Shown: positions 9,237-37,282, counted from the stretch's first letter. The stretch: 52,846 nt of DNA from an uncultured Verrucomicrobiota bacterium (GCA_964570325.1 CAZMXS010000029.1:1-52846); one strand, 5' to 3'. The notes: a model not told the origin generated them from the letters alone. A program made the numbers and translations.

Positions 9237-9526
9237 GTAATGAACTTCTCCACCGCGGTCAGGATTTGATCGGCGTCCGCCTGGGTCACGCCGCTGAACC
9301 AGACACCCTGTGGATACAGTATGACATTGGGTCCCTGCTGACAGAGGCCGAGGCAACCGGACTGTGAAACGCGCACGCGAGGCTTCCAGCCGCGGCGCTC
9401 TACTTCAGCCTTGAGATAATCCCGAATGGCGGCGGCCGCCCCGTCCGCGCACGATTTGCGCTCGCCATGCCGGTCATTGAGACAAACGAAAACATGGCAA
9501 CAATAAGGCGCCGCTTGCTGGTTCAT
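9224..9526 (-). CDS. Thioredoxin-like [2Fe-2S] ferredoxin
   Basis: Four Cys in 'CCHVFVCLN...C...GCLGLCQQGPNV' arrangement typical of Trx-like 2Fe-2S ferredoxins; may start at a GTG at 9547 overlapping the upstream stop; overlaps the malic enzyme start by 13 nt. Confidence 0.65.
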   Translation of the reverse strand: MNQQAAPYCCHVFVCLNDRHGERKSCADGAAAAIRDYLKAEVERRGWKPRVRVSQSGCLGLCQQGPNVILYPQGVWFSGVTQADADQILTAVEKFITCPA

Positions 9527-9543
9527 GGCCGGACCGGAGTCTC

Positions 9544-10344: not shown

Positions 10345-10487
10345 TGGTGGTTCTCCTTTTGCGTTTCCAAAGGCAATAATGCTTGAAATCTAAACATGAA
10401 ATGCGGCCAATGCCACAAAAAAACGCCGAATTGCTGATTCTCGTCCGTCGGCTGACATTCCCGGCCAACCGCCGCCACGGAATAATC

Positions 10488-10516
10488 TTGACGTAATTGT
10501 CGTATCCGATTGTACT
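10488..10516 (+). promoter_or_regulatory. Candidate sigma-70 promoter (TTGACG-N17-TGTACT) for the DUF2225 gene; near-leaderless transcript
   Basis: -35 TTGACG at 10488-10493, 17-nt spacer, -10-like TGTACT at 10511-16, ATG at 10526. Confidence 0.3.
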
Positions 10517-10525
10517 TATGCGCCT

Positions 10526-13172: not shown

Positions 13173-13276
13173 ACGCGCGGCGGCACAACACCCGGCCGCC
13201 ATGGGCAGGGATGAACCGCCGGGCCGTCTGATCGGCGCAATCCGCCCGCGCATCCGCCAGCGTGAGCGAGCGGCGT

Positions 13277-16172: not shown

Positions 16173-16176
16173 GGGG

Positions 16177-21892: not shown

Positions 21893-23311
21893 TTACTTGG
21901 TGAGAAAACCTTGGAAATCGGGATATGCTTCCATCCCATGCTCGCCGACATCCAAGCCCTGGATTTCCTCCGCCCGACTGACGCGCAGACCGAGGATCCG
22001 ACGGATAACCAGCCAGACCAGAAACGCGCCAATGAAGGTGAAAGCCCCCACCGTGCCCACGCCCGTCAACTGCGCGAGAAACAGTTTGAATCCGCCGCCA
22101 TAGAACAAACCATTGCCGGTGGTGTTGGGCATCACGGCATCCGCCGCGAACAGGCCGACCGCCAGGGTGCCGAAGATGCCGTTGACCAGATGCACCGAGA
22201 GGGCGCCGACCGGGTCGTCAATCTTGACCTTGTCAAAGAAGAGCACGGCCAGCACCACGAGCACGCCGGCGATCAAACCGATCATTACCGAACCACCCAC
22301 GGTAACGAACGCACAGGGCGCGGTGATGGCCACCAGACCCGCCAGGCAACCGTTGAGAATCATGGACAGGTCGGGTTTGCCGAGGAGCAGCCAGGCTGTA
22401 ACGGTCGCGCTCAAGCTGGCCGCCGCCGCCGCGCTGTTGGTGGTAACGGCGATCCGCGCGATGTCCCCGGCGGCCGCCGCCATCGTGGAGCCGGGATTGA
22501 AACCAAACCAGCCAAACCAGAGCACAAAGACCCCCAGGGCCGCGGTGGTCATGTTGTGGCCATAGATCGGTTTGGCGGAACCGTCGGGACGATACTTGCC
22601 GATGCGCGGCCCCAGCAGCAGGATGCCGGCCAGCGCCGCCCAACCGCCGACTGAATGCACAACCCTCGAACCCGCAAAATCCCACATCCCCAGCTTCTGC
22701 AACCAACCGCCCCCCCAAATCCAATGGCCGGTGATCGGATACATCAGCGCGACAATGATGAACGAGAAGATCATGAACGAATGGAACTTGATCCGTTCCG
22801 CCACGGCGCCGGAAACAATCGTGGCGGCCGTTCCCGCAAATACAAGCTGGAAGAAAAACTTGGCCCAGATTGGAACGCCGGTCCAATTCAGCGCCGAATA
22901 GACGCCCTGATAGGCATCGCCCGTAGCCGGGCTGTTATCCGCCCCACTCACCAGAAACAAGCCCTTCAACCCGGCGATGGGCGTGCCATCCCCAAACATC
23001 AACCCCCCCCCCAATAAATAGAAAGCCAGCGAGGAAATACCGAAAACGATGAAATTTTTAGCCAGAATGTTCACCGTATTCTTCGCGCGGCACAGACCGG
23101 ATTCCACCATGCCGAACCCAAGATTCATAAAGAACACCAGAAAGGCGGTGATCAAAACCCAGATCGTATCGAGCGCGATTTTCGTATTGGCGATGGCGTC
23201 CGCCAAATCCTGGGTGAATACCGGCGCCACACCCTCTTCAGCCCAACCCGCCGGCAATACCCCCACCATCAGGCCCACAATGAATAACCACAGCCACCTA
23301 TTCGGTTTCAT
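21893..23311 (-). CDS. amtB: Ammonium transporter
   Basis: 11-TM Amt fold, signal peptide, conserved 'FGFNPGS' and twin-His region; SD GGAG 7 nt before the ATG at 23311. Confidence 0.95.
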   Translation of the reverse strand: MKPNRWLWLFIVGLMVGVLPAGWAEEGVAPVFTQDLADAIANTKIALDTIWVLITAFLVFFMNLGFGMVESGLCRAKNTVNILAKNFIVFGISSLAFYLLGGGLMFGDGTPIAGLKGLFLVSGADNSPATGDAYQGVYSALNWTGVPIWAKFFFQLVFAGTAATIVSGAVAERIKFHSFMIFSFIIVALMYPITGHWIWGGGWLQKLGMWDFAGSRVVHSVGGWAALAGILLLGPRIGKYRPDGSAKPIYGHNMTTAALGVFVLWFGWFGFNPGSTMAAAAGDIARIAVTTNSAAAAASLSATVTAWLLLGKPDLSMILNGCLAGLVAITAPCAFVTVGGSVMIGLIAGVLVVLAVLFFDKVKIDDPVGALSVHLVNGIFGTLAVGLFAADAVMPNTTGNGLFYGGGFKLFLAQLTGVGTVGAFTFIGAFLVWLVIRRILGLRVSRAEEIQGLDVGEHGMEAYPDFQGFLTK

Positions 23312-23367
23312 TTTTTGCTCCTATCCCAGTCGCAATGTTTGGTTGTTGTGCGACGCCTGCCAATTGA

Positions 23368-23382
23368 GCAAACAACATGCCA
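23368..23382 (-). promoter_or_regulatory. Sigma-54 (RpoN) -24/-12 promoter driving amtB-glnK
   Basis: Minus-strand reading 5'-TGGCATGTTGTTTGCT-3' matches TGGCACG-N4-TTGC with exact GG/GC spacing; GC is about 57 nt upstream of the amtB ATG. Confidence 0.6.
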
Positions 23383-23418
23383 TGTTGAGCGCATAAAGAT
23401 TGCAATTTTCTTATCACA

Positions 23419-23438
23419 TTGATTACAAATTGATTACA
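23419..23438. repeat. Tandem direct repeat TTGATTACA x2 (11-bp phase) inside an AT-rich island upstream of the sigma-54 promoter
   Basis: cacaTTGATTACAaaTTGATTACAtata; the region at 23395-23530 is strongly AT-rich in a GC-rich genome. Confidence 0.4.
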
Positions 23439-23771
23439 TATACATCATAATTGTTTTATTCTTTTTATGTAGCTACGATATTGTATTATCTGGTATTTTA
23501 TGATACTGTTTTGTTATTATTATGCAAATAAAGTGTCTGTTTGGGTTCGGTGGCAACTCAAGGTTTCACTGTCTGGACCGCCTTCGCTGGAACTGCGGTG
23601 TAGAAATTCTAATAAGAGCTGGCGTCGGCGAATGGAATCAAGCCGCGCATGCGCATTCGCACAATCCAGTCACTCACGCCGGCGACGATAGCGAAAGGCG
23701 CGCGCGGCGCAAAGTGCGGATACAGACGTGCGATCAGGATGATCGGGTCAGCGCCCCCTCCTTGATTCGCG

Positions 23772-26700
23772 CTACGGCAGTGTCACGCGAAGGCGGTAGC
23801 TGCGCGCGGGAGCCGCGCCGTCATTGGTATAGCTAAGCCAACCGCCAGTGCCCGCCACATTGGTCCAGATTGGCGCCCAGTTCAGGTTATTGCTAAAGGC
23901 GCCCAAGCTCGCCTGCAGATGATAGCGGCGATTGGAGGAACTGCCCCATTGGATCAGGCCCGCCCGGGCATCCGGACTAACGCCGGCCTTAAACACCAGC
24001 CAGGAATTGGAGTCCATCGGATCGGTGTCCCAAAAGAACTCATCATGATTGGAATAGCGGTCGCCGTCGCTGTTCTGCCCGGCGTCGGCGGCATTGGTCG
24101 GCGATAATCCGTTGCGCACCTCCCAGCCGTCCGGCATTTCGTCGCGGTCGCCGTCGGGATCGAGCGGGCTGCAGCCGTACGCGGCCTCGCCGGAATTCGC
24201 CAATTCGTCCGCGTCATAATCGCCGCTCGCGCCCAGCACGACAATGGAGCGGGCGGCGGCGGCGCCAAGGTTGCCGTAACCGTCGCCGGCCCAGACGTAA
24301 ACGGTGTTCACCGCCTCCACGGTGGGATTCGCCATAATCGCGGCCAACGCATTCGTCCAGGCGCCATTGGTTGTGCCGGCGCCGTTGGCCAGGCTGTAAT
24401 AATAGCGCGCCACGCCCACGCCTTCGTCCGTGAAATTCGACCAATTGACCGACAGGCTGGCATCGAACGTGAAGGCCGCGTCGTCCCCGATGTGCACCAC
24501 GGCAGCGGCGGCGGACGGAGGCTGATTGTCGAGCGTGAACACCGCCGCGGTCACCGCCGGCGCCGCCAGCGCCAGGTTGTCCGCGATCACGCGCACGCGC
24601 ACATTGGTACTGACGGCATTGGTCGGCAGGCCGCTGTTGCCGGCGGCCCGCGTGTCCCAGGTCAGCGCCAGCCGGTTGGTGCCGGCGGCCCCGCCGCCAT
24701 TGGTCGCGGCCACGCCGCCGATCTGGTAGTAGCACTGGGTCGGGGCCAGCGCCGCCGCCGCCGTGCCCGCGGCGGCGATCATTCGCACACCGAACCAGGC
24801 GGCGCCGCCGTTGGTGCTGGCCTCCACGCGGAGCATGCCCGGCCGCCCGCCGGCATCATAGTAAGTGTTGCTGATCGTCACCAGGCCGCGGCCGTCGGTC
24901 GAAGTCTGCGCGGCAAACGGCAGCGCCACCGCCGGGACAGCGGCCCGATACAACTCGGCCCAATCCCACCAAACCGAGCCACGCCCCGCGCCATAGTTTT
25001 GCGCGCCGACCAGCCAATAGGCGTTCAACAGTTTGTTGGAAAGCTGGTGATATCCGGTGGCCGCGCCGGAATCGGTCGTAATCGCGATGGGCTGGCCGCC
25101 CGCGTCCGCGAACCGCACGGCGTAACGGCCGTCGCCCAGCAGGACGCGCATCTGGATGCCGCCGGTGGCCGTCAGATAGCGGGAAACATTGGCGATAGTC
25201 CCGACGAAGCGCTCGGTGCCGTCACTGGACGGCGTCTCCGTCTTGGTGAACAGCGCCATGGTCAGCGTGTCCGCTCCGGAATCATAGCGGCCGTGCAGGT
25301 TCACCGCATTGGTGGCCGCCCAGCCGTTGATAAATTCAGAGCAAACGCTTAATACCGCGCGCAGATCCTCGCCGGACTGCGCGGCATCCACGCGGATCGT
25401 GCTGAGTTGCGCGGCAAACACATACCATTCGCCGTCGGAATCACTCCAGGATCGCGCCTCATTCAACAGGTAGCCGGCCGTCTGCCAATCGCTGCCGGGC
25501 GGCTTCACCCGGAAACGCCCGCCCGCCTCCTCGAACTCCGCGCCGCCCCAGTCATTGTAGCGCGTCCAGGCATTGCTGGTGGCGCCATCGTCGAAATCGT
25601 CGCGCACGGCGAATGTTGAGCCGACCGGCGCGTTCGTGTACAGGAAGACAAATCGGATGTTGGGCACGTTGTTGGTCAGCGTCCGCGCGCCGCTCCCCGG
25701 CTGCGTGCCGGTCCAGGTGGTCGGATCGGTGGACACATTGGCGGTGTTGCCCAACGATTGGTTGGTGGCCGTCTTGGAGTACCGCGCGTAGCCCAGGGGA
25801 GGGCGCTGCTTGGCGCTGCCGTCTATGGAAAAATCCACCAGCAGATTGCTGGCGCCGTTGTAGGCGAAGTTGGTTGCCAGCTTGAAATAGTACCAGCCGA
25901 CCGCGCCAATGTTCAGATTGGATTCGAACACCGTTGTCCAATCGGCCACGGCCCACTGGTTGGACAGGCTGTTTAACGGCGTGTGCGCCAGCCGGATCGT
26001 ATATTCCGGCAACGTGATCGTCGGATACCCGCTGACGTAGATCGCCAGCGAGGTAATGACGCCGGACTTGCCGATCTGGCCGGCCAGGTACAGCGCCTGC
26101 AAACGGGTTTTCTTCTCATTGGTGTCCAGCGGATAGCGCCATGTGGTCAGCGTGTTCGTCCCAACCTGCGCGACGTTCGGCGCGTTAGTCTCCGGCGGCG
26201 GCGGAATGTGCGGGTTGGTGGCGACCCCCGTGTAGACGCGCGTCCGGTTCCAGTACACTTCGCCGCGGCCGTCCCAGACGTTGGCGGCGCCCAGCAGATA
26301 TGAGCCGCCGTCCAACACGTGACCCAGGGCGTGCACGCCGGTGCTGGACCCGCTCACGGGCGTGATGGTCACGCCGTTGGTGCGGTAATTGGCGCGGACG
26401 TAATAATTGGTCGTGCGCAGGACGAATTGCAGCTCGAGGCCATTGGTATCCGCGTAGGCGGACACGTTCGGGATCGTCCCCTTGAAGTGCGAATAGCCCC
26501 AACTATAGAGCCAGTTGGTCTTGGTGTAGAACTCCACGGTCAGCGAGTCATTGGCCTGGTCATAGCCGCAACGCAATGACGCCGCGTTGGAGGAATTCCA
26601 CGGATCGTACCAGACGCTGCCGGAGATGAAGGACTGAATGAGAAAGACATCCAGACCCGCGGCGTCGTTGCTGGTGCTGGCGCGGGTGACGTTCACCGTG

Positions 26701-27650
26701 TAGAGGCTGGCGGAGAAGACATATTCACGGCCCTCCGGCGAGTACTGGAGCGCTCCGGCCGTGTGATAACCGAGCGTGTAGTGGTCGGTATCGGGCAGCT
26801 TAATCCGCAGCAGCTCGTTGGACTCGACCAAGCCGTCGGCGCCCGGCTCGCCGGTGTTGGCCCAGATGTTGCTCATCGTATTGTCGCTAAACTCATCCTG
26901 GACCAGCGTCCCGGTCGCGGCCATGGCGGTGAAGATAAAATCCTGCAGGATCATCTCCACCGCGTTGGTGTCGGTCGGCGCGGCGCTCTCGAACAGCCAC
27001 ATGTTCATATAAGTCCGCTCGTCGGCATGCTCGGGCACATCGGTCCCCGTGTAGGTCCAGTCGGCGATCATGGAGCCGGTGTTCGGCGTAGGCGAATGGC
27101 CGTACCAGCTCTGCCAGCGGATGTAGTCCGGCAGCCAGGTGAACTGGTGCGTGGTGTAGTCATTGGTAAAGTTGACCAGTTTTTTTTCCTGATGCCCGGC
27201 CGTATAGTAGGGTTGGAGCGTGTAGTGCAGGTTGGTCTGCGCCTCAACGGTGAAGGCCTTCGTGAACTCGATGTCAATTTCGTTGACGCCCCATGGATTC
27301 GCATAGGTGAACAGACCGCCAACGACGTTGGTGTCCAACTGATCCACCCGGTTGGCCACATACCACGTGTACGTCCCATAGCCCATGCTGTTGGTGGAGA
27401 CCACCTCGGCGCAATAATTGGTGCCGCCGCGCTTGACGATCTTCAGATGCAGACAGCCATTGGTGTCCACCCAGACGCCGTTGGTCGCCCAATAGTTCGG
27501 CCCCGGCTCGGCCCACTGGCCCCATGTGCGGACATCCCACTTGCGCCCCGCAAACGTCACCTGATGCGCACCCGCCTCGACCGCCAGCCCACCCGCCAGC
27601 ACCGCCAGCAGCAACCCGCCGCGCCCGCCATTTCGCCACACGCACGCCAT
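23772..27650 (-). CDS. Giant secreted multidomain glycoside hydrolase: N-terminal GH16-like domain, an internally duplicated ~230-aa beta-sandwich domain, TSP3-like calcium-binding linker and terminal beta-sandwich module
   Basis: 1292 aa; signal peptide; GH16-like layout with catalytic 'NEIDIEF' (ExDxE) at aa 124-128; two paralogous domains (aa ~245-470 and ~681-900); C-terminal 'DPDGDRDEMPDGWE...NSDGDRYSNHDEF' then '...SYRLRVTLP'. Confidence 0.7.
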   Translation of the reverse strand: MACVWRNGGRGGLLLAVLAGGLAVEAGAHQVTFAGRKWDVRTWGQWAEPGPNYWATNGVWVDTNGCLHLKIVKRGGTNYCAEVVSTNSMGYGTYTWYVANRVDQLDTNVVGGLFTYANPWGVNEIDIEFTKAFTVEAQTNLHYTLQPYYTAGHQEKKLVNFTNDYTTHQFTWLPDYIRWQSWYGHSPTPNTGSMIADWTYTGTDVPEHADERTYMNMWLFESAAPTDTNAVEMILQDFIFTAMAATGTLVQDEFSDNTMSNIWANTGEPGADGLVESNELLRIKLPDTDHYTLGYHTAGALQYSPEGREYVFSASLYTVNVTRASTSNDAAGLDVFLIQSFISGSVWYDPWNSSNAASLRCGYDQANDSLTVEFYTKTNWLYSWGYSHFKGTIPNVSAYADTNGLELQFVLRTTNYYVRANYRTNGVTITPVSGSSTGVHALGHVLDGGSYLLGAANVWDGRGEVYWNRTRVYTGVATNPHIPPPPETNAPNVAQVGTNTLTTWRYPLDTNEKKTRLQALYLAGQIGKSGVITSLAIYVSGYPTITLPEYTIRLAHTPLNSLSNQWAVADWTTVFESNLNIGAVGWYYFKLATNFAYNGASNLLVDFSIDGSAKQRPPLGYARYSKTATNQSLGNTANVSTDPTTWTGTQPGSGARTLTNNVPNIRFVFLYTNAPVGSTFAVRDDFDDGATSNAWTRYNDWGGAEFEEAGGRFRVKPPGSDWQTAGYLLNEARSWSDSDGEWYVFAAQLSTIRVDAAQSGEDLRAVLSVCSEFINGWAATNAVNLHGRYDSGADTLTMALFTKTETPSSDGTERFVGTIANVSRYLTATGGIQMRVLLGDGRYAVRFADAGGQPIAITTDSGAATGYHQLSNKLLNAYWLVGAQNYGAGRGSVWWDWAELYRAAVPAVALPFAAQTSTDGRGLVTISNTYYDAGGRPGMLRVEASTNGGAAWFGVRMIAAAGTAAAALAPTQCYYQIGGVAATNGGGAAGTNRLALTWDTRAAGNSGLPTNAVSTNVRVRVIADNLALAAPAVTAAVFTLDNQPPSAAAAVVHIGDDAAFTFDASLSVNWSNFTDEGVGVARYYYSLANGAGTTNGAWTNALAAIMANPTVEAVNTVYVWAGDGYGNLGAAAARSIVVLGASGDYDADELANSGEAAYGCSPLDPDGDRDEMPDGWEVRNGLSPTNAADAGQNSDGDRYSNHDEFFWDTDPMDSNSWLVFKAGVSPDARAGLIQWGSSSNRRYHLQASLGAFSNNLNWAPIWTNVAGTGGWLSYTNDGAAPARSYRLRVTLP

Positions 27651-27660
27651 AAATGATCTC

Positions 27661-27810
27661 CTGTGTATACCGCTATTGTACCAGTATACAGATACTTGGC
27701 GTTTTTGTTAAATCACCGGATCATCCCCTGATCGCCGGATTGGACCTTGATCATCCGCCCCGCGCTCAACGCAAAGGGTAAACATACTAGTATGGTTTTA
27801 GTATACCTGT
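27661..27810. promoter_or_regulatory. Cluster of GTATAC-containing palindromes (candidate operator/promoter) between the two giant CAZyme genes
   Basis: TGTATAC-N13-GTATACA inverted repeat (27664-27690), perfect 12-bp palindrome CATACTAGTATG (27783-27794), and another GTATAC (27801-27806); lies upstream of the 23772..27650 gene. Confidence 0.3.
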
Positions 27811-27863
27811 TCAATGGCGCACGGTATAGGCCGCGGGCGGGTGCAAAAAACGCCGGCGCGGCT

Positions 27864-30800
27864 TCAAGGCACGACCAGCCGATAATAACCGCGCGGCTGG
27901 CCCGCAATGGTATTGGTCACCACCAGCTCTTCGTCCCGCGCGGCCGTGATCAGGGCGCCGACATCCTGCCAGGCCGCCGGCAGATTGGTGGCCATTTGCA
28001 CGCGATAGGTGACGCCGGATCCCGCCTGCCAGGCGAGCATGAAGCCTGGCGGATTGAAGATCGGCGCGGCCGCGCCAACATGCAGATAGGAACCGCCGTC
28101 CCAGGGATCCGTGCGCGCGCGATACTCGGACAGGTTCGGATAGCGGTCACCGTCCGAATCCAGCGCGGCATCGGCGCGCAGGCGCGGATTCAGGCCATGC
28201 GCCAACTCCCACTCGTCGTTCATCCCGTCGCTGTCGTCGTCCGCCTCCGCCCCAAACGGCACGCCGTTGCTGTTTGAATCCACCACCGCCTGCAAGGCGT
28301 CCACATACACGGTCGCCGGACCCGTCACGGGCAGGTCTATCTGCAGATACAGGTTCAACCACACCGAACTGTCATGCCGCGTCCAGTCATACGGGATCAC
28401 CAGTGTGTGCCAGGCCCCGTCGTTCGGGCAGGCGTTGGTCCCGAGGTTGTCCCAACCCGTCTCGCTGCTCTGCATGATCAGCCGGAATGACGCCCACGCC
28501 ACATTGGTCGGCGTCCGCGCTCGCAGATACACGCAATTATAGTTGGTCCACGTCAACGCATCCTGCCGCGCGCTGAAGTCCGCCATCACGGTCTTGCCGT
28601 AAGGCGACGACGAATTGTCGAAGTCCACGCGCACTCCCGCCCGTCCCTCGTATGGCTGGTTCGTGTCCAGCGTCACGGCGAACGGCGCCCCACCCCCGCC
28701 CCAACCCTCCAGCGAGCAGTTCCACCCGTACACATATCCCCGCAAATCGTCGGCATGCAGAAAATGCCGGCGCCCATTCTTCATCGCATTCAACCATCCG
28801 TAGTACGCCGACTGCACGGCCGCGTTCGAGGTCACCGTCCAGTTCACCCAGTCGCTTTGCGCCTCGGCCTCGATCTTATACCAGTTGAACCAGTTGATCG
28901 CCTTCAGCATCGGCAACTGCTCGGCCACGTCCCGCGCATTGGCGTTATCGCCGCCGATATTGAACAACTGCTCCATCCACCGGTTCTTGATGTATAATTC
29001 ATCGTTCGTCTGCTGCGGCGGCCAATAGGGATTCCCTGAACTCGGACACGACGGCCGGTAATAACCCGCGGTTTCCGGCACCATCATCGGCTTATCCCGG
29101 CCCACCGCCCAAATTGCATGGAAATCCGGGTTCCAGGTGTTGTCGCCGTTCGGCCCGTTATAGTTGCCGGTGATCTGCGACCAGAATTTATTCGTCTCCG
29201 GCCAGCAGTTGTACCACCACGGGTACACCGTCCCCCAATGGTACAGCGTCATTCCCACCCAATCCACATACGCGTCGCCCGGATAAAACGGCTCGTATGG
29301 ATCGTCCTGCAGCACGCCGCCGTCATTCTTCAGGTATCCGTCTCCATTGCTGTCCAGCAGATACCAGTCCGCGGCCGATCCGTAGCCCGCCACGTAGGTC
29401 GCCTTGGTCATGTTATTGTACGCCCCATAGGGATAGGCGCCCGCCACGTTCGGCGCCCACAGCAAGGCGGTGTTGGTCGCCGTCGCGTGCACACTGCTTG
29501 CCAGCAGGCGGAATTTCTCCCGATACAACGCCGGCCGCATCTTCCATGCATACCAGTCCCCGTTCATCTCATGCGCAAACCGGATCATGATCGGCACACC
29601 GCGGCCGTTCCAGTACGCGCACCAGTTCGCAAACGACTGACAGTCGTTGCTCGTGATGCTCCCCAACCCCGCCGTCGGCTCCAGCGTCGCCACGAACATG
29701 CCCCCCACCTCGCGCACCAGCGCGATATGGTTGCTCAACGCCAGGTAATGCGGCGCGTCCACCGGGAACACCGTGAAGTCCACGAACGCCGTATGGTCCC
29801 AGCCCACCCGCGCGTTGAACTGCAACGGCGACTCCTGGCCCCAATCGAGGTTCGCCCCGATCATGCACCCGGCCGCCGGCTCCAGGCGCGCCAGCGCCGA
29901 CACGGCCTGGGTCGTCAGGTTCAACGCGTCACACTTGAATGCCGCGTTGAGCCCCTGGCCCTCCGCCGCAATCACCGCCCGCACCTTCACCGTGTTCGTC
30001 GGCGCCCAGCCCTCCACCTCGTAATAGGTCCAGTCCGGCCCCACGCCCGAGACAACGGCAATGTTGGTCCCAATCATGTGGTCGCTGCCGTCATAATACT
30101 CCAGTTTCAGATACAGCCCGCTGAAGGTGTAGTTCGTGTCCGCGCAAAAATAGCCCGACAGCCAATACTTTGCCGCTCCGCTGCGCGCCACATCCTGATA
30201 CCAACCGCCGCTGGCGTTGGCGCCACCCCAGTTATGCAAGCTCGCCAACCACCCGTCCCCATCGTAGGAGCCCCAATTCTCCCGCGTCGCGTCGCCCCAC
30301 CGATTCCAATACTGGGCCGCCGCGTTCGCGTTGGTTGTCCCATCCGGCCCGTAACGGAAACCACCGTTCTGCAACAGCGTCGGCGCCTCGGGCGGCAGCC
30401 CACCCGTCGTCGAAAACGTGATACTGGTCGCCGCCGCCGCCAGGCATGCGCCGTTTTCCACGGCCTGCCCGGCGAAAGCGAAATACACCGTCTGGCTGTA
30501 GTCCAGCGCGGGGGTGATCGTGAAGGTGGTCTTGGCCTCGTTGACGCTGACGCCAAATGGCACCCACGCGCCTCCCGCGTGGCTCAAGCGGACCACCACC
30601 AGATTGCTCAAGGCCGCCGTCCCGTTCAGCAGCGGCAGGCCATTGGTGTGGCGCATCGCCGCGGAAAAGGCGACTTGAATCGAACTGCCCGGCGCGACGC
30701 CGGTCGCGCCATCGGCCGGCGCCACCGTGTAGGGCGGCACGTACACCAACGGCGTCCCCGCCTGCGTCAGTTCGGCGTTGTCGAACTCCGCCTGGTTGGA

Positions 30801-32972
30801 ACCCGTGCTGTGGGAATAACCCATCGAGACGCGCACGGCGTTCACGCTGGCCACATTGGCGGTGACGGAAAGACTGTGCACGATCCAGGCGGTGGACGTG
30901 GCCAGCATATCGGCATAAATGTTGCGCTCGTTGACCGCGCTGGTGGCGCTGCCGGAAAGCGCCTCGATCCGCATCCAGATGTTGGAGGTGGTCGAACGCA
31001 GGTTGCCCAGCCGGCCGGTGATGCGGAAGGTGTACTGCCCGCCGTCCAACGGCGTAACGCGGCAAACCTGATAGAAGGTACCGGAGGAGCCCGGCGTCCA
31101 AGTCGGCATGACCATGCCACCGCTCGCGGCCGGACCCGCCCACGGGGCAATCACGCAACTGCCCGACGTCTTCCACGGCGAGGGCGACTGGTCAAACGAC
31201 GCATCCTTGACCCCGGTCTTCACCAGGGTCATGCCCAACGCCGCGGTGCGCGCCACCCCGGAGGTGCACTGGCTCGCGCCGAGGGTCAGGCGATTGGTCC
31301 GGATATCGCTGGCGTACACATTGCTCGCGTTGCCGCTGAGCACCACCACGGCGCTGGTGGCGTCCAGACGCGTAACCGTGCCGACGCCAACGCCGGCGGG
31401 CAGCCCCGCGAAAGACCACTGGGATGCATTGAGACTGCCGGCAAAGGCATCGCCCTGGAGATAAACGGCGATCGGCTCGCCATTCTCGTGGCGCGCCAGG
31501 ATTTCACCATCGTCGTACATATCGAGCGGCTCGATCACCCGGTACATGGCCAGGGCATAACGTTGGCCGAACTCGCGCTGCGCGTTTCCGCTGAAATGAT
31601 GGTTATCCGGATTCCCCTCAAGGTCATCCGAGGGCGCGCAGCCCGTGCGCGCCTTGTATTGCGGCAGCGCCTGCAAGGCCGCCTGCACCGGGGCGGCGTA
31701 AGCAGAATAACTCTGGCCGGCGTTGACAAAAAAATCGCCCATTTCACCGACGATGAACGGCAAATCCGGCCGGCCGAGGTCGGCCCGCAGGTCGTCAATC
31801 AACTGGTTGAGCTTGTTGCTGTAAACGGAAGCCAGGACGGAATCGCCGCTGTCGCCCTCGCCCTGGTGCCAGATGATGCCCGCCAGGTTGCCGTAGTTCG
31901 TGGCGAACCGGACGCGGTCGAGCGTGCTCTGGTAGAGATTGGTGCCGTAATCGTTGCCCCAGCCGTCCACGTCGCCGATCGCGATGTTGTCGGTCCAGTA
32001 GATGGTCGCGGAATTGGTTTTCTGCCACCAATCAATCGCCGTGCCGCCGTGCGCGTTGGGCACCAACAGGATTTGGGTGTCCGGCCAGGCGTCCGCCAAC
32101 GTCTCGCCAAAGGTCTTGCCGGGGCCGACACCCATCCAGTTATAGACATAGTTGGGGTCGGATTCGTTGGTAATCGTGCAGTTGTAACGGAAATCGTGAT
32201 GGGTCAATGGGTCCACCGCCGCGCGCCACACTTTGCCGACGAAGGGATTATTGGTCTGGTCGGCCGGATTGCGGCGCGACAATTGCTGCACGCGCGCGTG
32301 CGGCTGGTTGGCGCCGCTGGCATAGGTGTAGGAGTAAAAGCTGTTCCAGCCGGTCATATTGGACTGGCCCAGCAGGACAAACACGTTGGTCTTCGTCACC
32401 GCCGGCGGCGGGTCGCTCTGGATCAGGCTCGCGTTGTCCCAACGGGCCACGCGATAATCACCACCCACCCCCGTACCGGCGGAAAAGCCGACTTCAACCA
32501 GAATCCGGTTGAAATTCAACCCGGAGGTGTTGGTGTAGCCCGCCGCCCAGCGCAGCCAGCCTGATGAGTTCGTAAAAGCCGCATAAATGTTATTGGTGAC
32601 GGTCTGCACGGGAGTGGCATCCTGCAGAAATTGCAGCCGCAGATAGAGGTCGGCGGTCGAGGACCGGAACTCCGCGCCGCACAGGCCGTCAACCGTAAAT
32701 TGAAACACGCTGCCATTCGAGGTGCTGACGCCGGTGACCGTCTGGCGGAACCAACCGGAGGCGCCCGCCCACCAATTGCCGAGGACGACGCCGTTGGTGC
32801 CGTCCCTGGCCGCCCACCCCGCCATCATCACCCCACCCGTGCCGGCCAGTTCCCAATGATTGGTGCCGGCTTCCATGTCGCCATTCTGCAAGAGTTCCAC
32901 CCCTGGCGCCATTGCGGCGCAGCCCCAAACCCAGACCGTCAGCCAGTGCGCGAATCTTCTCATTCGGGACAT
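27864..32972 (-). CDS. Giant secreted multidomain carbohydrate esterase/glycoside hydrolase: CBM4/9-like, SASA esterase domain, CBM-like and Ig-like domains, GH26-like domain, C-terminal TSP3-like linker and terminal beta-sandwich module
   Basis: 1702 aa; signal peptide; 'LLQNGDMEAGTNHWE' and 'LLQNGGFRYGPDG' CBM4_9-type starts; 'VFVLLGQSNMTGW...IIWHQGEGD...DNHHF' SASA/SGNH motifs; 'MIRFAHEMNGDWYAWK...MMVPETAGYY' GH26-like; ends '...DSDGMNDEWELAHGLNP...DSDGDRYPNLSEY...RGYYRLVVP'. Confidence 0.7.
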   Translation of the reverse strand: MSRMRRFAHWLTVWVWGCAAMAPGVELLQNGDMEAGTNHWELAGTGGVMMAGWAARDGTNGVVLGNWWAGASGWFRQTVTGVSTSNGSVFQFTVDGLCGAEFRSSTADLYLRLQFLQDATPVQTVTNNIYAAFTNSSGWLRWAAGYTNTSGLNFNRILVEVGFSAGTGVGGDYRVARWDNASLIQSDPPPAVTKTNVFVLLGQSNMTGWNSFYSYTYASGANQPHARVQQLSRRNPADQTNNPFVGKVWRAAVDPLTHHDFRYNCTITNESDPNYVYNWMGVGPGKTFGETLADAWPDTQILLVPNAHGGTAIDWWQKTNSATIYWTDNIAIGDVDGWGNDYGTNLYQSTLDRVRFATNYGNLAGIIWHQGEGDSGDSVLASVYSNKLNQLIDDLRADLGRPDLPFIVGEMGDFFVNAGQSYSAYAAPVQAALQALPQYKARTGCAPSDDLEGNPDNHHFSGNAQREFGQRYALAMYRVIEPLDMYDDGEILARHENGEPIAVYLQGDAFAGSLNASQWSFAGLPAGVGVGTVTRLDATSAVVVLSGNASNVYASDIRTNRLTLGASQCTSGVARTAALGMTLVKTGVKDASFDQSPSPWKTSGSCVIAPWAGPAASGGMVMPTWTPGSSGTFYQVCRVTPLDGGQYTFRITGRLGNLRSTTSNIWMRIEALSGSATSAVNERNIYADMLATSTAWIVHSLSVTANVASVNAVRVSMGYSHSTGSNQAEFDNAELTQAGTPLVYVPPYTVAPADGATGVAPGSSIQVAFSAAMRHTNGLPLLNGTAALSNLVVVRLSHAGGAWVPFGVSVNEAKTTFTITPALDYSQTVYFAFAGQAVENGACLAAAATSITFSTTGGLPPEAPTLLQNGGFRYGPDGTTNANAAAQYWNRWGDATRENWGSYDGDGWLASLHNWGGANASGGWYQDVARSGAAKYWLSGYFCADTNYTFSGLYLKLEYYDGSDHMIGTNIAVVSGVGPDWTYYEVEGWAPTNTVKVRAVIAAEGQGLNAAFKCDALNLTTQAVSALARLEPAAGCMIGANLDWGQESPLQFNARVGWDHTAFVDFTVFPVDAPHYLALSNHIALVREVGGMFVATLEPTAGLGSITSNDCQSFANWCAYWNGRGVPIMIRFAHEMNGDWYAWKMRPALYREKFRLLASSVHATATNTALLWAPNVAGAYPYGAYNNMTKATYVAGYGSAADWYLLDSNGDGYLKNDGGVLQDDPYEPFYPGDAYVDWVGMTLYHWGTVYPWWYNCWPETNKFWSQITGNYNGPNGDNTWNPDFHAIWAVGRDKPMMVPETAGYYRPSCPSSGNPYWPPQQTNDELYIKNRWMEQLFNIGGDNANARDVAEQLPMLKAINWFNWYKIEAEAQSDWVNWTVTSNAAVQSAYYGWLNAMKNGRRHFLHADDLRGYVYGWNCSLEGWGGGGAPFAVTLDTNQPYEGRAGVRVDFDNSSSPYGKTVMADFSARQDALTWTNYNCVYLRARTPTNVAWASFRLIMQSSETGWDNLGTNACPNDGAWHTLVIPYDWTRHDSSVWLNLYLQIDLPVTGPATVYVDALQAVVDSNSNGVPFGAEADDDSDGMNDEWELAHGLNPRLRADAALDSDGDRYPNLSEYRARTDPWDGGSYLHVGAAAPIFNPPGFMLAWQAGSGVTYRVQMATNLPAAWQDVGALITAARDEELVVTNTIAGQPRGYYRLVVP

Positions 32973-33021
32973 CCTTTCCTGTGAGCTAATATACCCGGCC
33001 CATCCTCCCGCTGATCCTTTT

Positions 33022-34632
33022 TCACCAATTCACCCGCTGAACCAAGGCGGCGCGCAGCACGCCCGCCATCTTCTGATGGGTAACCGCGCTGGGATGGTAA
33101 TCCGCCCCATAACCGTCCGCCGGTTCCTGCTGGGCAAACTCCAGATAAGACACATTCGTTATTCCTTTGGCCGCGAATCCGTTCACGATGTGGGTCAGCC
33201 AGGTCCGCAGGGTCGTGCGGCGATACTGGCCAATCGGCCAGTCATCGTTGGGCGTGGAACTTAAGCAGCAGAATATGGCTGGTTCGCCGTACGCGTCCCG
33301 CACCCGATTGACCAGGCCGATATAGGCGGTGCAAAAATCGGATTCGGGCGGCGACCCGATGCCGAAATCGTTCGCCCCCAGCGTGATCACGACCGCCTGG
33401 GGCACCCACTGCGCAAGATCCCACACGGATGCCGGCTCCCACGGCAGCGCGCGGGAGTACAGCTCCGGCAACGTGCCGTTGGTCGAGCCATCCACGTTGC
33501 GCCAGACACCCCGGCCGGACCACGAGATCAGTCGGCAGTCCGCCGTTACCGCCGCGGCGGCCAGCCACCCGTACGTGAGCGTCGCATTAACTGTGGCCGG
33601 ATGATAGGTGTTAGTCGCGGCGGGAGCTTCAATCCCGTACCCGCTGGTCACGGAGTCGCCGATGATTTCCAGGCGGCGCGCGGGCGCGGGCGGCGGCGTT
33701 TCCAGCATCCCGCCCTCCGGCAGTTCCAAACCCAGCACTTGAATTCGACCCACCCAGGCTTCCGTTCGCTTGACGACGCGCACCGTGTGGACGCCGGACA
33801 GCGGCTCGTCCACAATCCGGTAATGCCGCGCATGGGTCTGGAGCGGCACCCGGGTGTAAGGTCCGCCATCCACCGAAATGGCCAGGTAATTGCCGGCCTG
33901 GGGATTGGCCGGGCTGGGCCACTTGGTGATCTCGCGCACCAACAAATCCGCCTGGGCGCCGGTAAAACGGAAGGTCAGACCCACCGCCCCCCATTCGGCT
34001 TGGGGGCCTGCCGGGTCGCCCGCATCCCACCGGCCTTGATAAGCAATGCGCGGGTCGTTGGGCGCATAGCAATTGGCGCCGGCCGGACTGCGACCCGCAC
34101 CCCCCTGGCAACCGCGTTGCGCATCTTCACGCATGGCATTCGTGTAGCTCATTAAGCCTCCTGATCCCGCGGCGGGCCCCCGCTCGTGTTCCCGTACCGA
34201 CGGAGAAATCGAACCCGCAAACTGAACGGCGAAAAGGATATCGGCTTGACCGGTCCGCTGCATCGCCATGCACGCCCGATTCCCCACCAGGGGATCCGCC
34301 TGCGGGAACGCTTGCGCCTCCCGGGAGTCGCTTCCCGTCCTGTATTCCGCCCAGTTGGCAAAACCGTCGCCGCCCAAATCCGCATGAGCGCGTACACCCT
34401 GGAACCATTCGCCGGCCGTATTGGTTCCGCCCCGACGGCGCACCTGCGCCGCCACGTCCGCGCTCGTCAGCCCATCTACCCCATGCCGAAATCCGCCGTT
34501 CGTCAGCCGGTTCGCGCCAGCCGCCGCGCCCGCGAGCGCCAACCAATACCCTGCGCCGACCAATGCCATCACGACCCGCGCGCCGGCTTTCATGCGCGGC
34601 CTGTCTCCAGACGCTTTCATATTATACAACAT
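33022..34632 (-). CDS. Secreted SGNH/GDSL carbohydrate esterase (CE2-like: N-terminal beta-sandwich plus SGNH hydrolase)
   Basis: Signal peptide; 'IIGDSVTSGYG' GDS(L) block, 'ITLGANDF' block III, 'ADYHPS' catalytic Asp/His block; N-terminal jelly-roll-like region. Confidence 0.7.
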   Translation of the reverse strand: MLYNMKASGDRPRMKAGARVVMALVGAGYWLALAGAAAGANRLTNGGFRHGVDGLTSADVAAQVRRRGGTNTAGEWFQGVRAHADLGGDGFANWAEYRTGSDSREAQAFPQADPLVGNRACMAMQRTGQADILFAVQFAGSISPSVREHERGPAAGSGGLMSYTNAMREDAQRGCQGGAGRSPAGANCYAPNDPRIAYQGRWDAGDPAGPQAEWGAVGLTFRFTGAQADLLVREITKWPSPANPQAGNYLAISVDGGPYTRVPLQTHARHYRIVDEPLSGVHTVRVVKRTEAWVGRIQVLGLELPEGGMLETPPPAPARRLEIIGDSVTSGYGIEAPAATNTYHPATVNATLTYGWLAAAAVTADCRLISWSGRGVWRNVDGSTNGTLPELYSRALPWEPASVWDLAQWVPQAVVITLGANDFGIGSPPESDFCTAYIGLVNRVRDAYGEPAIFCCLSSTPNDDWPIGQYRRTTLRTWLTHIVNGFAAKGITNVSYLEFAQQEPADGYGADYHPSAVTHQKMAGVLRAALVQRVNW

Positions 34633-34673
34633 AACGTCAGAACGCGCCGCCGGATAGAATCACTCTTGCGGAT

Positions 34674-34788
34674 TAATTGTCCGTTATTGCCCATCGGTCA
34701 CAGGGCGGTCCGGCAGCCGACCGATAGCCGACGACGCGCGGGGCTGGGCCGAAAGCAGCCGGATTGCGCAGTAATTGTCCGATATTGC
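34674..34788. promoter_or_regulatory. 17-bp direct repeat pair (TAATTGTCCGTTATTGC / TAATTGTCCGATATTGC), candidate AraC-family operator
   Basis: Copies at 34674-34690 and 34772-34788 (16/17 identical), located between the araC-family gene stop and the esterase gene start. Confidence 0.35.
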
Positions 34789-35835
34789 TCAGCGCACGGC
34801 GTGCGCAAGGCGGTAACGCAGCGGCGAGAGGCCAAAGTGGCCGCGGAAGGCCTTGATGAAGGCGGCGCTGGCGGCGAAGCCGGCGCGCTCGGCCACGTCG
34901 CCAACCGGCAGGTCGGTTTGGATCAGCAGCTTGCCGGCGCGCTCCATCCGCACGCCGCGCCGGTACTGCGCGGGCGCGACGCCAAAGAAGCGGCGGAATT
35001 CGCGGATGAAATGAAACGTGGAAAATCCCGTGGCGCGCGCGATTTCCGGCAGCGGGCGGTCGCGCTGCGCCTCGTCCGCCAACAGGCTCTTGGCGCGCAT
35101 CAGGCTGCGCTCTTTCTGGCTGTATTGAATCACCAATCCCTGTCCGGCTTTGACGGCCCGCCGCCGCAAGTCCACGGCCATCATCGCCATCAGCTCGATC
35201 CAGAAATTCACAATCCAGGCCGAGCCGCACTCGGGATAGCCGCGCAACCGGGCCAGCATGCGCGCGGCGGATTGGCGCAATTGGCTGCGTGTCGGCCGAC
35301 CGAGTTGCAGGCTGGTCTCGCGGCGAATAAAAAAGTAATCGAAGAACGGCGCGAACGTCTGCGCCAGGCGCAGGTCGGAACGGGCGTCCAGGCGGTCGGA
35401 TTCGAGATTGATGTCAAACTGGATGATCAAACCGCGCCAGGGGTGTCCCGGCGCGGCCGACCATTCTGAAGAATGGGCGTACCCCGGCCGCGCGACGAAT
35501 ATATGGCCCTCCGGACAGACCTCGCTCCGACCACTGTGCAGCGTCCGCCCGCTGCCGGAGAGCGTGTAGAAGAGTTCGCTGAACGGGTGGGTATGCCCCT
35601 GGAACGCGCCGCGGCCGACGTGATCGTTCACGCCGAAATAGATGAAGTTGACCTGAACCCCCTCGAACACGGCACGGGCATCGCCAAACCAGCGGCCGTC
35701 TATTTTGCGGATCGTGGCCGGCAGCCCCTTGGGGCGCTCCTGGCCTTCGATCACCCGGGTGGATTGCTGGGCGGGACGCTTGTTCATGCGAGCCTTCGCG
35801 CGGCCGTTACACTTATTTGTGACAACCATACTCAC
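34789..35835 (-). CDS. AraC-family transcriptional regulator (N-terminal cupin-like sensor plus C-terminal dual HTH)
   Basis: C-terminal 'ARATGFSTFHFIREFRRFFGVAPAQYR' AraC HTH signature; N-terminal cupin-like 'GHTHPFSELFYTLSGSG'; true start may be MNKRP at about 35787. Confidence 0.85.
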   Translation of the reverse strand: MSMVVTNKCNGRAKARMNKRPAQQSTRVIEGQERPKGLPATIRKIDGRWFGDARAVFEGVQVNFIYFGVNDHVGRGAFQGHTHPFSELFYTLSGSGRTLHSGRSEVCPEGHIFVARPGYAHSSEWSAAPGHPWRGLIIQFDINLESDRLDARSDLRLAQTFAPFFDYFFIRRETSLQLGRPTRSQLRQSAARMLARLRGYPECGSAWIVNFWIELMAMMAVDLRRRAVKAGQGLVIQYSQKERSLMRAKSLLADEAQRDRPLPEIARATGFSTFHFIREFRRFFGVAPAQYRRGVRMERAGKLLIQTDLPVGDVAERAGFAASAAFIKAFRGHFGLSPLRYRLAHAVR

Positions 35836-35837
35836 AA
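35817..35837. promoter_or_regulatory. Inverted repeat TTGTGA-N9-TCACAA at the 5' end of the araC-family gene
   Basis: Seen directly; lies either in the 5' UTR (if the start is 35787) or in the first codons (if 35835). Confidence 0.25.
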
Positions 35838-36093
35838 GCTACGGCGCCCGGAAGTTCAAAATGCAAGCCGCGTAGGCGGCACATGGCTTCCCGGCCGGGT
35901 TACCGGCCAGAGCCAGAGTTCACCTCCCCAGCCCGGCAAACTTACCGGGAAACGGGAACAACCTTCGCGCGGGAAACCGCCTTGGGATTTATCGGTTTGC
36001 CACGGGCGCCCGGTCTCTTCATATTTAATCGCATGAGCCACGTATGCGCGGATAATCGGGTCCGAGCCCGCGCCCGGGCGGGAGCGCCAGCGT

Positions 36094-37209
36094 ATGAGCG
36101 ATGAAATCAAGAAGTTGAGCCTGTCCGTGCTGTCCAAGGGCGCGCGCGCGCAATTCGCAATCGGTCTCGCGCTGGTCTCGGTAATCCCCCTGCTGACTTT
36201 CTGGTACCTGAGCCTGTTCGTCCACGCGGATCGGCCCTTTTACAGCTACCAGTCCTTGGCCCTGCTGGTGATGGTCTGCGCCATGGGCTTCAGCGGCTAC
36301 GCCATCCTGCACAAGTATCCGCTCAATATTGTCCGCCTGCGCGACTACCTGGAGCACATCATCCAAGGCAAGCTCCCCGAACAGGTCAAACTGGTCACGG
36401 GCGAGGACGACATGCGCGTGGTGGAAAAATGCCTGAACCTGATCCTCGTTCAACTGCAGGAGCGGCTCGAGATCCTGCAGGCGGAAAAAGCAGCCCTGCA
36501 ACAGAAGGTCTTTCAACTGCAAAAAATGGAATGCCTGAGCGTGATGGCGGCCGGCACGGCGCGCGCCTTCGACCATCTGCTGGCCGATATCGGCAGCCAG
36601 TTGACGCGGACTGGTCCGGCGCTGGCGGCCGGCCCGGGGGATATCGAGACACTGCTTCGCCGCGGCGCCGCGCTGACCAATCAGATGCTGGTCTATGCCG
36701 GTCAGGGCCGATTCGTCATGGAACGGGTGGATCTCGTGCCGCTGGTGCGCGATACCGTCCGGATGCTGAACGCTTCCGGCGATGGCCTGCGCGTGGAGTT
36801 TGCCTCCGAATGCCCCACCCTGACCGTCACCGCCGACCCCGCTCAACTGCGGCAGGCGCTCATCAACCTGGCGACCTTCGCCAGGGACTCGGCCAAGCCG
36901 CGGCAGGCGCTGATACGCATCTCCACGGCGCCGCTGAAGACGAATCCCGACGTTTTCAAGGACTGCGTGATCCAAGGCGTCCGGCCGCGCGACACCGCCG
37001 CTTGCATTGAAGTCAGGGACAACGGCCCCGGAATTGCCCCGGAGGTTTTGCCCCGGATCTTTGAGCCCTTCGCCGGATCAAAATCCGACGACCGTGGCCT
37101 GGACCTGGCCGTCATCCCCAGCATCCTCAAGGCGCACAAGGGCGCGGTGGCGGCGGATAGCGAGGCCGGCAAAGGCGCCCGATTCCGGCTCCTGCTCCCG
37201 ATACATTAA
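36094..37209 (+). CDS. Sensor histidine kinase (intramembrane-sensing type, no periplasmic domain)
   Basis: Two closely spaced TM helices, coiled-coil, H-box 'AAGTARAFDHLLADIGS', HATPase_c ('EVRDNGPGI', 'GLDLAVIPSILKAHKG'). Confidence 0.8.
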   Translation: MSDEIKKLSLSVLSKGARAQFAIGLALVSVIPLLTFWYLSLFVHADRPFYSYQSLALLVMVCAMGFSGYAILHKYPLNIVRLRDYLEHIIQGKLPEQVKLVTGEDDMRVVEKCLNLILVQLQERLEILQAEKAALQQKVFQLQKMECLSVMAAGTARAFDHLLADIGSQLTRTGPALAAGPGDIETLLRRGAALTNQMLVYAGQGRFVMERVDLVPLVRDTVRMLNASGDGLRVEFASECPTLTVTADPAQLRQALINLATFARDSAKPRQALIRISTAPLKTNPDVFKDCVIQGVRPRDTAACIEVRDNGPGIAPEVLPRIFEPFAGSKSDDRGLDLAVIPSILKAHKGAVAADSEAGKGARFRLLLPIH

Positions 37210-37282
37210 GCGACGGATCACGGCGCCCCGTTCCGCTCCCCGCGAACAGAGAGCTTTGGGACAAACCGTCTGAATGCAAGTT

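Follow-up and report, generated by a model that had tools for sequence, protein, structure and literature searches.

A predicted AraC-controlled gene cluster for deacetylating and cleaving an acetylated beta-glycan in an uncultured Verrucomicrobiota bacterium

The DNA considered here, called the window throughout, is a stretch of 52,846 nucleotides from an uncultured Verrucomicrobiota bacterium (GCA_964570325.1 CAZMXS010000029.1:1-52846). Its minus strand carries an AraC-family regulator, an acetylesterase of family CE2, a 1702-aa protein (the giant) that joins a SASA esterase domain to a GH26 glycanase domain, and a 1292-aa protein headed by a GH16 domain. Here, the AraC protein probably activates a CE2-(SASA-GH26) unit whose products deacetylate and cleave an acetylated beta-glycan, with the GH16 protein as a loosely linked companion. 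Sequence comparisons and structure models make it more likely that the backbone of this glycan is gluco- or xylo-configured and beta-1,3/1,4-linked than that it is a classical beta-mannan.

The original prediction, made from the sequence of the window, had placed four minus-strand reading frames in this region, and they are found just where it put them. The SASA, Big_5 (Ig-like), GH26, GH16, CE2 and AraC modules are all recovered above Pfam thresholds; the motifs that had been quoted stand at the expected residues, and the catalytic residues are intact in the window proteins. The genes and their domains are these:

34789..35835, minus strand: AraC/XylS-family regulator, a 348-aa open reading frame (ORF) with a probable start at 35787 (332 aa) by public gene calls
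33022..34632, minus strand: CE2 acetylesterase (CE2_N + GDSL), a 536-aa ORF with a probable start at ATG 34593 (523 aa)
27864..32972, minus strand: 1702-aa secreted multidomain protein, probable start 32963 by public gene calls
31542..32390, minus strand: SASA (CE6/CE20-type SGNH) esterase domain of the giant, residues 195-477 (PF03629, E 2.7e-45)
30408..30725, minus strand: Big_5 Ig-like domain of the giant, residues 750-855 (Pfam E 1.2e-7, 32.8 bits against a gathering threshold (GA) of 23.6)
28713..29900, minus strand: GH26 (beta/alpha)8 catalytic domain of the giant, residues 1025-1420 (partial Pfam match plus AlphaFold model)
27867..28277, minus strand: TSP3-type repeats and a ~75-aa C-terminal domain ending YYRLVVP (weak NCBIfam/Pfam TSP3 matches)
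23772..27650, minus strand: 1292-aa secreted protein with an N-terminal GH16 domain; orthologues 48-50% identical
26916..27563, minus strand: GH16 beta-jelly-roll domain, residues ~30-245 (Pfam, AF2, Foldseek)

The case for a single working unit begins with the company that the GH26 domain keeps. The core that recurs across relatives is an AraC protein, this GH26 subclade, and an acetylesterase. In the related locus L010, the orthologue of the giant (P0002, SASA plus GH26, ~63-72% identical over aligned regions) has an AraC gene directly before it, whose product is 50% identical to the window AraC; neither a CE2 nor a GH16 gene stands beside P0002. In locus L020, from the same assembly as the esterase protein P0004, a standalone GH26 protein (P0022, 57-59% identical to the window domain) occurs together with a 768-aa GH26-CE2 fusion, a third GH26, and an AraC. 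Here, the AraC is 40% identical to that of the window, and the CE2 half of the fusion is 51% identical to the window CE2. Esterase and GH26 have therefore been fused twice independently, as SASA-GH26 and as GH26-CE2, each time beside a homologous AraC. This is evidence of the Rosetta-stone kind for an O-acetylated GH26 substrate, and it supports the acetylated glycan that had been proposed as target.

The SASA-GH26 fusion itself is rare. A filter-only HMMER search with residues 195-1390 against 1.84 billion cluster representatives found the two domains combined in one other representative, P0002. The remaining strong matches were to the esterase half alone, to the CBM-like module and GH26 half alone, or to Ig-repeat proteins. 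The giant looks like a fusion of an esterase protein of the P0003/P0004 type with a GH26 protein of the P0022 type. Against a genome collection of species representatives it gave TSP3-repeat matches only, in unrelated metagenome-assembled genomes. The architecture had been called unusual. This is true of the SASA-GH26 pairing, whereas fusions of esterase and glycanase are well established in general, CtCel5C-CE2 being an example (PMC2661963).

Both esterases have the features that define their families. In the SASA domain, the motifs GQSNMTG at residue 202 (Ser204), HQGEGD at 369 (Gln370) and DNHHF at 456 (Asp456/His459) supply the Ser, the Gly, the Gln in place of Asn, and the DxxH block. CE6 and CE20 both fall under the SASA Pfam model, and in them Gln typically takes the place of the SGNH Asn (PMC12313940). 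Among PDB entries the domain matches 1zmb (E 3.5e-17), titled "acetylxylan esterase related enzyme", and 2apj, an Arabidopsis "putative esterase", with the GQSNM, HQGE and DNHH blocks aligned. Both of these are presumably CE6 members. The sole addition in the window domain is an insertion of ~57 residues between blocks I and II (283 residues over 226 model positions); in bacterial CE20 enzymes, a beta-sandwich ancillary domain is inserted into the SGNH domain.

The CE2 protein, in turn, shows the N-terminal beta-sandwich of its family (CE2_N, residues 198-314, E 1.9e-19) followed by an SGNH domain (Lipase_GDSL_2, residues 323-523, E 1.2e-13). It also matches the NCBIfam AxeC2-like model at E 3e-43, below that model's cutoff. 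Its catalytic Ser lies in a GDS motif at residue 325, and near the C-terminus stands an Asp-aromatic-His motif (D-Y-H, in ADYHPS), comparable to the D-W-H motif of CtCE2 (PMC2661963). Translation presumably starts at 34593 rather than at 34632, since a TATAAT element falls inside the longer ORF and the public gene call uses 34593. Residues 1-190 are a degenerate region. Within this N-terminal extension (34060-34632), a 34-aa stretch shares 53% identity with the beginning of the third beta-sandwich module in the giant; behind it come a TSP3-like motif and a region that weakly matches the giants' C-terminal domain (E 9e-4). The extension looks like the collapsed remnant of a giant protein, and may be a scar of deletion or recombination.

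What would be cut after deacetylation depends, of course, on the GH26 domain. PF02156 scores 30.5 bits on the 1702-aa protein against a GA of 20.2, in a partial match that covers residues 1110-1174 only. The acid/base Glu1135 (codon 29568-29570) lies in RFAHEMNGDWYAW at residue 1131, and the nucleophile Glu1300 (codon 29073-29075) in VPETAG at 1298. A search with residues 1025-1420 alone returned 321 homologues, and all but one of the 120 listed bear PF02156; the homologues extend to chytrid fungi and to "stalk-domain" proteins of Paenibacillus. An alignment of 28 homologues shows no variation in the RFAHEMNGxW block, at E1135 or at E1300. The AlphaFold model built on that alignment (pLDDT 91, pTM 0.92) is a (beta/alpha)8 barrel of clan GH-A, closest to solved GH26 structures.

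GH26 enzymes are known to act as mannanases, beta-1,3-xylanases, mixed-linkage xylanases and, in one case, as a lichenase (PMC10470212). The closest characterised relatives of the window domain are not mannanases. Foldseek places the CtLic26A lichenase first (E 5e-15), followed by AlXyn26A and a Vibrio beta-1,3-xylanase, with mannanases lower. A profile of the clade, compared with PDB sequences, finds CtLic26A at E 2.6e-23 in an alignment over the full barrel with both catalytic Glu in register, then AlXyn26A (2e-14), BoMan26B (8e-12, the best mannanase) and the Bacillus mannanases (~4e-9). The CtLic26A segments that correspond to E1135 and E1300 are HEANG and AEF. Three independent comparisons thus place the window GH26 in the non-mannanase part of the family, and "mannanase" becomes the less supported default as far as profiles and models can tell.

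The alternative is a classical cluster for acetylated (gluco/galacto)mannan, in which GH26 would be an endo-beta-1,4-mannanase and CE2 and SASA a complementary pair of esterases. It is rather unlikely, and yet has respectable arguments. Mannanases make up the majority of characterised GH26 enzymes (PMC10470212), CE2 enzymes often prefer acetylated glucomannan (PMC2661963), full deacetylation of mannan requires paired esterases (PMC13276840), and one of the neighbours in L020 shows a weak match of the GH113 type. However, the lichenase and the beta-1,3/mixed-linkage xylanases come out above every mannanase in the clade profile and in both structure searches. The WYAW that follows the acid/base Glu resembles the WYPW of CtLic26A; mannanases have WFWW there. 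Further, no GH130, GH2, GH36 or mannose-catabolic genes lie nearby, and the adjacent GH16 is lichenase-like.

Of the two substrates originally proposed, acetylated gluco/galactomannan is therefore the less supported, and the nearest enzymes are a lichenase and beta-1,3-xylanases for GH26, and lichenases for GH16. The leaning away from mannan follows from the clade profile, which favours CtLic26A, from the GH16 domain, whose nearest relatives are lichenases, and from the fusion of B-type (GH16-like) proteins to GH30 in relatives. It is moderately probable that the polymer is a non-mannan beta-1,3/1,4 gluco- or xylo-polymer, from plants or microbes, and about half of that probability belongs to an exopolysaccharide. 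Acetylated mannan has a minor share, and other substrates the remainder.

The exopolysaccharide idea comes from the wider clade, which includes 202 representatives at E<1e-30 from several bacterial phyla and chytrid fungi, and is without a characterised member. A metagenome scan with the GH26 alignment gave an 80-locus sample. Here, a CesA-like GT2 lies within 6 kb in 13 of the 80 loci, typically as GT2, ~0.8 kb, GH26 on one strand. In 7 of the 80, an O-acyltransferase (OpgC/Acyl_transf_3) is fused to GH26 or lies directly 3' of it, as in the L047 ORF at 9815-12382. No SASA, CE2, AraC or GH16 neighbour was found in any of the 80. A homologue from Terrimicrobiaceae sits in a TPR-TPR-TPR-GT2-x-GH26 array. 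This GT2-GH26-acyltransferase arrangement looks like an undescribed synthase-dependent exopolysaccharide operon. Its likeness to operons of that type, with their hydrolase and acylating enzyme, means that the clade substrate may be an O-acylated beta-glycan exopolysaccharide.

Carried over to the window, the idea would make the target a bacterial O-acylated exopolysaccharide polymerised by a CesA-like GT2, and the locus would then either eat the matrix of others or remodel its own. This is possible rather than probable. In its favour are the GT2 and O-acyltransferase genes of the clade loci, none of which has SASA, CE2 or AraC neighbours, the Terrimicrobiaceae operon, and the presence of PslG, a biofilm hydrolase, among the structural neighbours of the window GH26. 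Against it, the members linked to GT2 or to the acyltransferase are 25-39% identical to the window domain, so that the subclade found in PVC-type bacteria may have switched substrate, and genes for GT2, TPR or acyltransferase proteins are missing from the window. That the window GH26 has a new specificity, cutting an O-acylated beta-glycan exopolysaccharide made by a CesA-like GT2 and acylated by OpgC/AT3, is an equally tentative proposal. Were it true, the AraC-CE2-(SASA-GH26) cassette would mirror the biosynthetic operons, deacylating and cutting what they polymerise, acylate and trim, and a PVC-type bacterium could feed on the matrix polymer of other microbes.

The arrangement of GT2, gap and GH26, often with OpgC/Acyl_transf_3 fused to the GH26, is conserved among clade members of other phyla (L047 7082-12382, L048-L050, L052, L056, L059; L021 811-8679, where three TPR proteins come first). 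Clade homologues at 24-31% identity are encoded by the chytrids Globomyces, Rhizophlyctis, Entophlyctis and Obelidium (P0035, P0039-P0041, P0066, others), several with an apparent N-terminal membrane anchor. Their occurrence suggests a role in cell-wall remodelling or an old horizontal transfer.

The 1292-aa protein runs from GH16 through a jelly-roll module X, a module Y, a second module X, an Ala/Gly-rich region and TSP3 repeats to the C-terminal domain. Its PF00722 match is marginal (residues 55-179, 25 bits against a GA of 22). NEIDIEF begins at residue 123, and the ExDxE residues Glu124-Asp126-Glu128 (27267-27281) lie on a predicted beta-strand. In an AF2 model of residues 25-480 (pLDDT 87), the second module is a galectin/LamG-like jelly roll. 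With the GH16 model as query, Foldseek ranks Bacillus and Paenibacillus 1,3-1,4-beta-glucanases at the top (target-normalised TM-scores 0.70-0.73). The modelled structure thus bears out the marginal GH16 call. A whole-protein PDB search gave no match, and an exact look-up of the product found no record.

Of 17 homologues, 15 retain the EIDIE motif. The two exceptions, P0145 and P0146, have a GH30 domain in addition, and their motifs have decayed to RELDIQF and HGLGIDY. This pattern suggests selection on EIDIE where GH16 is the sole catalytic module. In the GH30-fused relatives, the GH16-like domain appears to be a catalytic domain becoming a binding module. GH30-bearing relatives of the 1292-aa protein are seen in P0145, P0146 and P0156, and in L018 at 10001-15700.

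Such decay might lead one to view the four genes as unrelated neighbours, and the giants as adhesin-like surface proteins in which enzyme-like domains serve chiefly as lectins. Both giants are built largely from beta-sandwich, Ig and TSP3 modules without catalytic function, the GH16-like catalytic residues are lost in P0145 and P0146, and the composition of the cluster is mosaic across relatives. This view is nonetheless very improbable: the SASA, GH26, GH16 and CE2 catalytic residues are all intact in the window and vary little or not at all among homologues, esterase, GH26 and AraC come together independently elsewhere, and a conserved operator motif stands upstream of the orthologues.

The mosaic composition does bear on how the cluster is drawn. 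In locus L015, from a close relative, the order is HU-hisS-aspS followed directly by the 1291-aa orthologue of the GH16 protein, with no AraC, CE2 or giant gene in the locus, and the AspRS is 74% identical to that of the window. Relative to the L015 genome, the block at 27651-37282 thus represents an insertion or a deletion. In L013, a SASA giant without GH26 (P0003) is directly followed by a B-type GH16-like protein, 46% identical and with NEIDIEF intact; adjacency of a SASA giant and a GH16-like gene thus recurs. The GH16 gene is nonetheless not part of a fixed unit: in L015 it follows aspS without any of the other three genes, and in the window it is preceded by a promoter-like site of its own but not by the operator motif. 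The dedicated single locus of the original prediction survives in the recurring association of AraC with SASA giants, but not as a fixed unit of four genes. The genes that follow P0003 and P0004 were considered as split-off GH26 halves and rejected, one being the B-type GH16-like gene and the other unrelated.

The regulator is an AraC/XylS protein by its architecture, a C-terminal double helix-turn-helix (HTH_18, E 4e-26; HTH_AraC) behind an N-terminal ligand-binding/cupin domain (AraC_binding, Cupin_2), all from Pfam. The sites through which it might act are as follows:

34764..34788, minus strand: candidate AraC operator, distal copy GCAATATCGGACAATTACTGCGCAA of a 25-nt direct repeat, directly 3' of the araC stop codon
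34666..34690, minus strand: candidate AraC operator, proximal copy GCAATAACGGACAATTAATCCGCAA of the 25-nt direct repeat, ~40 bp upstream of TATAAT
34621..34626, minus strand: -10-like TATAAT, read from the sequence, of the presumed AraC-dependent CE2-giant promoter
27683..27711, minus strand: sigma-70-like promoter TTAACA-17-TATACT ahead of the 1292-aa gene (consensus match only)

Two copies of the 25-nt repeat lie between the araC stop and CE2, where the number of such pairs expected by chance is 0. The core of the repeat, GCAAT-N3-GGA-N10-GCAA(T), holds two GCAAT elements at a spacing of 21 bp and is found twice in the window against ~0.02 expected by chance. The same core precedes all four SASA-giant orthologues, lying ~100 bp ahead of the start in L010, L013 and L014, and the other loci among the 20 compared lack it. 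L020 has four near-matches against 0.34 expected, all intergenic and beside GH26, CE2 or AraC genes. The core is thus a candidate AraC operator, with binding predicted from these positions.

The proximal operator lies ~40 bp 5' of a TATAAT that a consensus promoter scan did not call, finding no -35 match. This placement would fit an activator-dependent promoter. The gap between the CE2 stop and the giant gene is 49-58 bp, short enough to make co-transcription of the two likely. The 1292-aa gene, in turn, is preceded by an AT-richer gap of 213 bp that has no operator motif and holds the TTAACA-17-TATACT site, which matches the consensus at 10 of 12 positions and is the best site in a 14-kb scan.

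Put together, these parts suggest the following mechanism. The AraC protein, with its cupin sensor and two HTH motifs, would bind the tandem GCAAT-N16-GCAA(T) sites between the araC stop and CE2. So bound, it would activate a promoter with a weak -35, which would drive CE2 and the 1702-aa gene as one transcript. The CE2 enzyme and the CE6-like SASA domain would then strip acetyl groups, probably at different positions. The GH26 domain, as a retaining (beta/alpha)8 endo-glycanase (Glu1135, Glu1300), would cut the backbone so exposed. Fusion of the esterase would keep deacetylation next to cleavage, while the beta-sandwich modules might hold the substrate. The TSP3 repeats and C-terminal domain could, more speculatively, retain the giants at the cell surface. 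The lichenase-like GH16 protein would be a companion, separately transcribed and inherited, that probably acts on the same or a related polymer of the beta-glucan type.

Several points weigh against this reading, of course. The window GH26 is <=24% identical to any characterised GH26, so that its substrate specificity is not readable from similarity, and the pairing of CE2 with GH26 is the classical signature of acetylated mannan. L020 offers hints of other polymers: an FGE-sulfatase-family gene (9125-9967) of a sulfated glycan, and a 644-aa protein (12301-14235) with a weak match (E 1.6e-3) to the mannanase family GH113 of mannan. The GH16 gene is adjacent in only two of three informative relatives. 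The operator pattern was refined after L010 was inspected; with the window-derived 22-position consensus alone, the chance of the L010 match is ~5e-3 by our own estimate. The enzymes look secreted, with signal peptides judged by eye. Finally, a nutritional role is an assumption, since a Pfam scan of the window shows neither a transporter nor a cytoplasmic or downstream glycosidase. For the same reason, the original description of the cluster as like a polysaccharide utilisation locus (PUL) was an overstatement. Its contrast with the SusC/SusD-centred PUL of Bacteroidota holds, as no SusC/SusD-like protein appears among the 29 ORFs scanned with Pfam across the 52.8-kb window.

Comparison with known systems shows what is familiar here and what is not. 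CtLic26A, the GH26 lichenase module of Clostridium thermocellum endoglucanase H (PDB 2bv9, 2cip), is 18-24% identical to the window domain, which is ~110 residues longer, has clade-specific insertions such as the LDTNGDG...DDPY loop, and is fused to an esterase where CtLic26A is fused to GH5. The Xyl4 beta-1,3-xylanase (3vpl/2ddx) and the AlXyn26A mixed-linkage xylanase (7xjr; PMC10470212), 16-21% identical to the window domain, are marine enzymes for algal xylan, whereas the window has no xylan-related genes nearby. The Bacillus and Paenibacillus GH16 1,3-1,4-beta-glucanases (1mac, 1gbg, 3o5s) share the EIDIEF catalytic strand with the window GH16, but the window domain is 20-22% identical to them and heads a 1292-aa multi-module protein of surface type.

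Like the giant, CtCel5C-CE2 holds an acetylesterase and an endo-glycanase in one polypeptide, coupling deprotection to cleavage (PMC2661963). Unlike it, the giant has a SASA/CE6-like esterase N-terminal to GH26, has no dockerin, and ends in TSP3 repeats and a novel C-terminal domain; the CE2 version, with the same GH26 clade, is the one in L020. Gut loci for acetylated mannan have paired esterases, CE2 and CE17 in Roseburia, CE7 and CE25 in Bacteroides cellulosilyticus (PMC13276840). The window likewise has two different acetylesterases and a GH26 under a dedicated regulator; it differs in its esterase families, in a GH26 outside the mannanase branch, and in lacking a transporter, SusC/SusD, GH130, GH36 and an epimerase. 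Many members of the GH26 clade resemble exopolysaccharide hydrolases of the BcsZ/PslG type in lying beside a CesA-like GT2, with or without TPR, whereas the window GH26 lies outside such an operon, shares its polypeptide with an esterase and CBM-like modules, and is predicted to be under AraC control.

A cluster of this type, a regulator with secreted enzymes that deacetylate and cut, is fairly ordinary in bacteria. The logic of secreted esterases and endo-glycanases under AraC is familiar and, if confirmed, would extend rather than overturn known biology. The value lies elsewhere: links of the clade to acetylesterases, O-acyltransferases and cellulose-synthase-like GT2 narrow the substrate search and make it a well-defined target for enzyme discovery, and the conserved motif beside AraC offers a testable regulator-site pair in an uncultured lineage.

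The remaining parts of the giant are less readily named. From its N-terminus it consists of a signal peptide (by eye), a beta-sandwich, the SASA esterase, an Ig-like repeat, a beta-sandwich and Big_5; then follow a CBM-like module, GH26, a beta-sandwich, the TSP3 repeats and the C-terminal domain. The beta-sandwich modules had been labelled CBM4/9-like. The best PF02018 score among the four beta-sandwich-like modules of the window is 12.9 bits against a GA of 25.9, and the equivalent module, preceding GH26, in the homologue P0163 reaches 24.9 bits (CBM_4_9, E 3e-5); the label stays tentative for the window modules. In a lenient Pfam scan of ten unassigned segments, neither the CBM-like modules nor X, Y or the C-terminal domain could be assigned to a family with significance.

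That ~75-aa C-terminal domain follows TSP3 repeats, ends YR[LV]x[VL]..P, and occurs twice in the window (27867-28100 and 23775-24010). Neither Pfam nor NCBIfam has a model that matches it. With an HMM made from 16 C-termini, matches in related loci are confined to the very end of large secreted proteins; the domain closes many of these in PVC-type contigs (L001, L002, L010, L013-L015, L018), and it is common to Victivallaceae and Verrucomicrobiales contigs. Together with the pseudopilin and T2SS genes, this sharing suggests a PVC-type lineage for the window. The domain may be specific to the lineage and serve in sorting or anchoring.

The flanks of the cluster are housekeeping genes, with hisS, aspS and HU (by gene calls) upstream, and amtB, a P-II gene, a DinG-type helicase and type II secretion system (T2SS) genes downstream. 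An Rfam scan of the window gave no match. One further gene diverges from araC:

36094..37209, plus strand: HATPase_c (sensor-kinase-like) gene, Pfam HATPase_c only

Its membership in the cluster is doubtful, as it is absent beside the orthologous AraC genes in L010 and L020. A 1148-aa antisense ORF inside the giant gene (29118-32564, plus strand) was likewise set aside as most likely an artefact of high GC. The T2SS genes gspF, gspE and gspD lie at 13277-18138, ~6-10 kb downstream of the cluster, and their products are a plausible, predicted export route for the giant proteins. In L015, a T2SSK-like pseudopilin protein (22606-23505) also bears the C-terminal domain.

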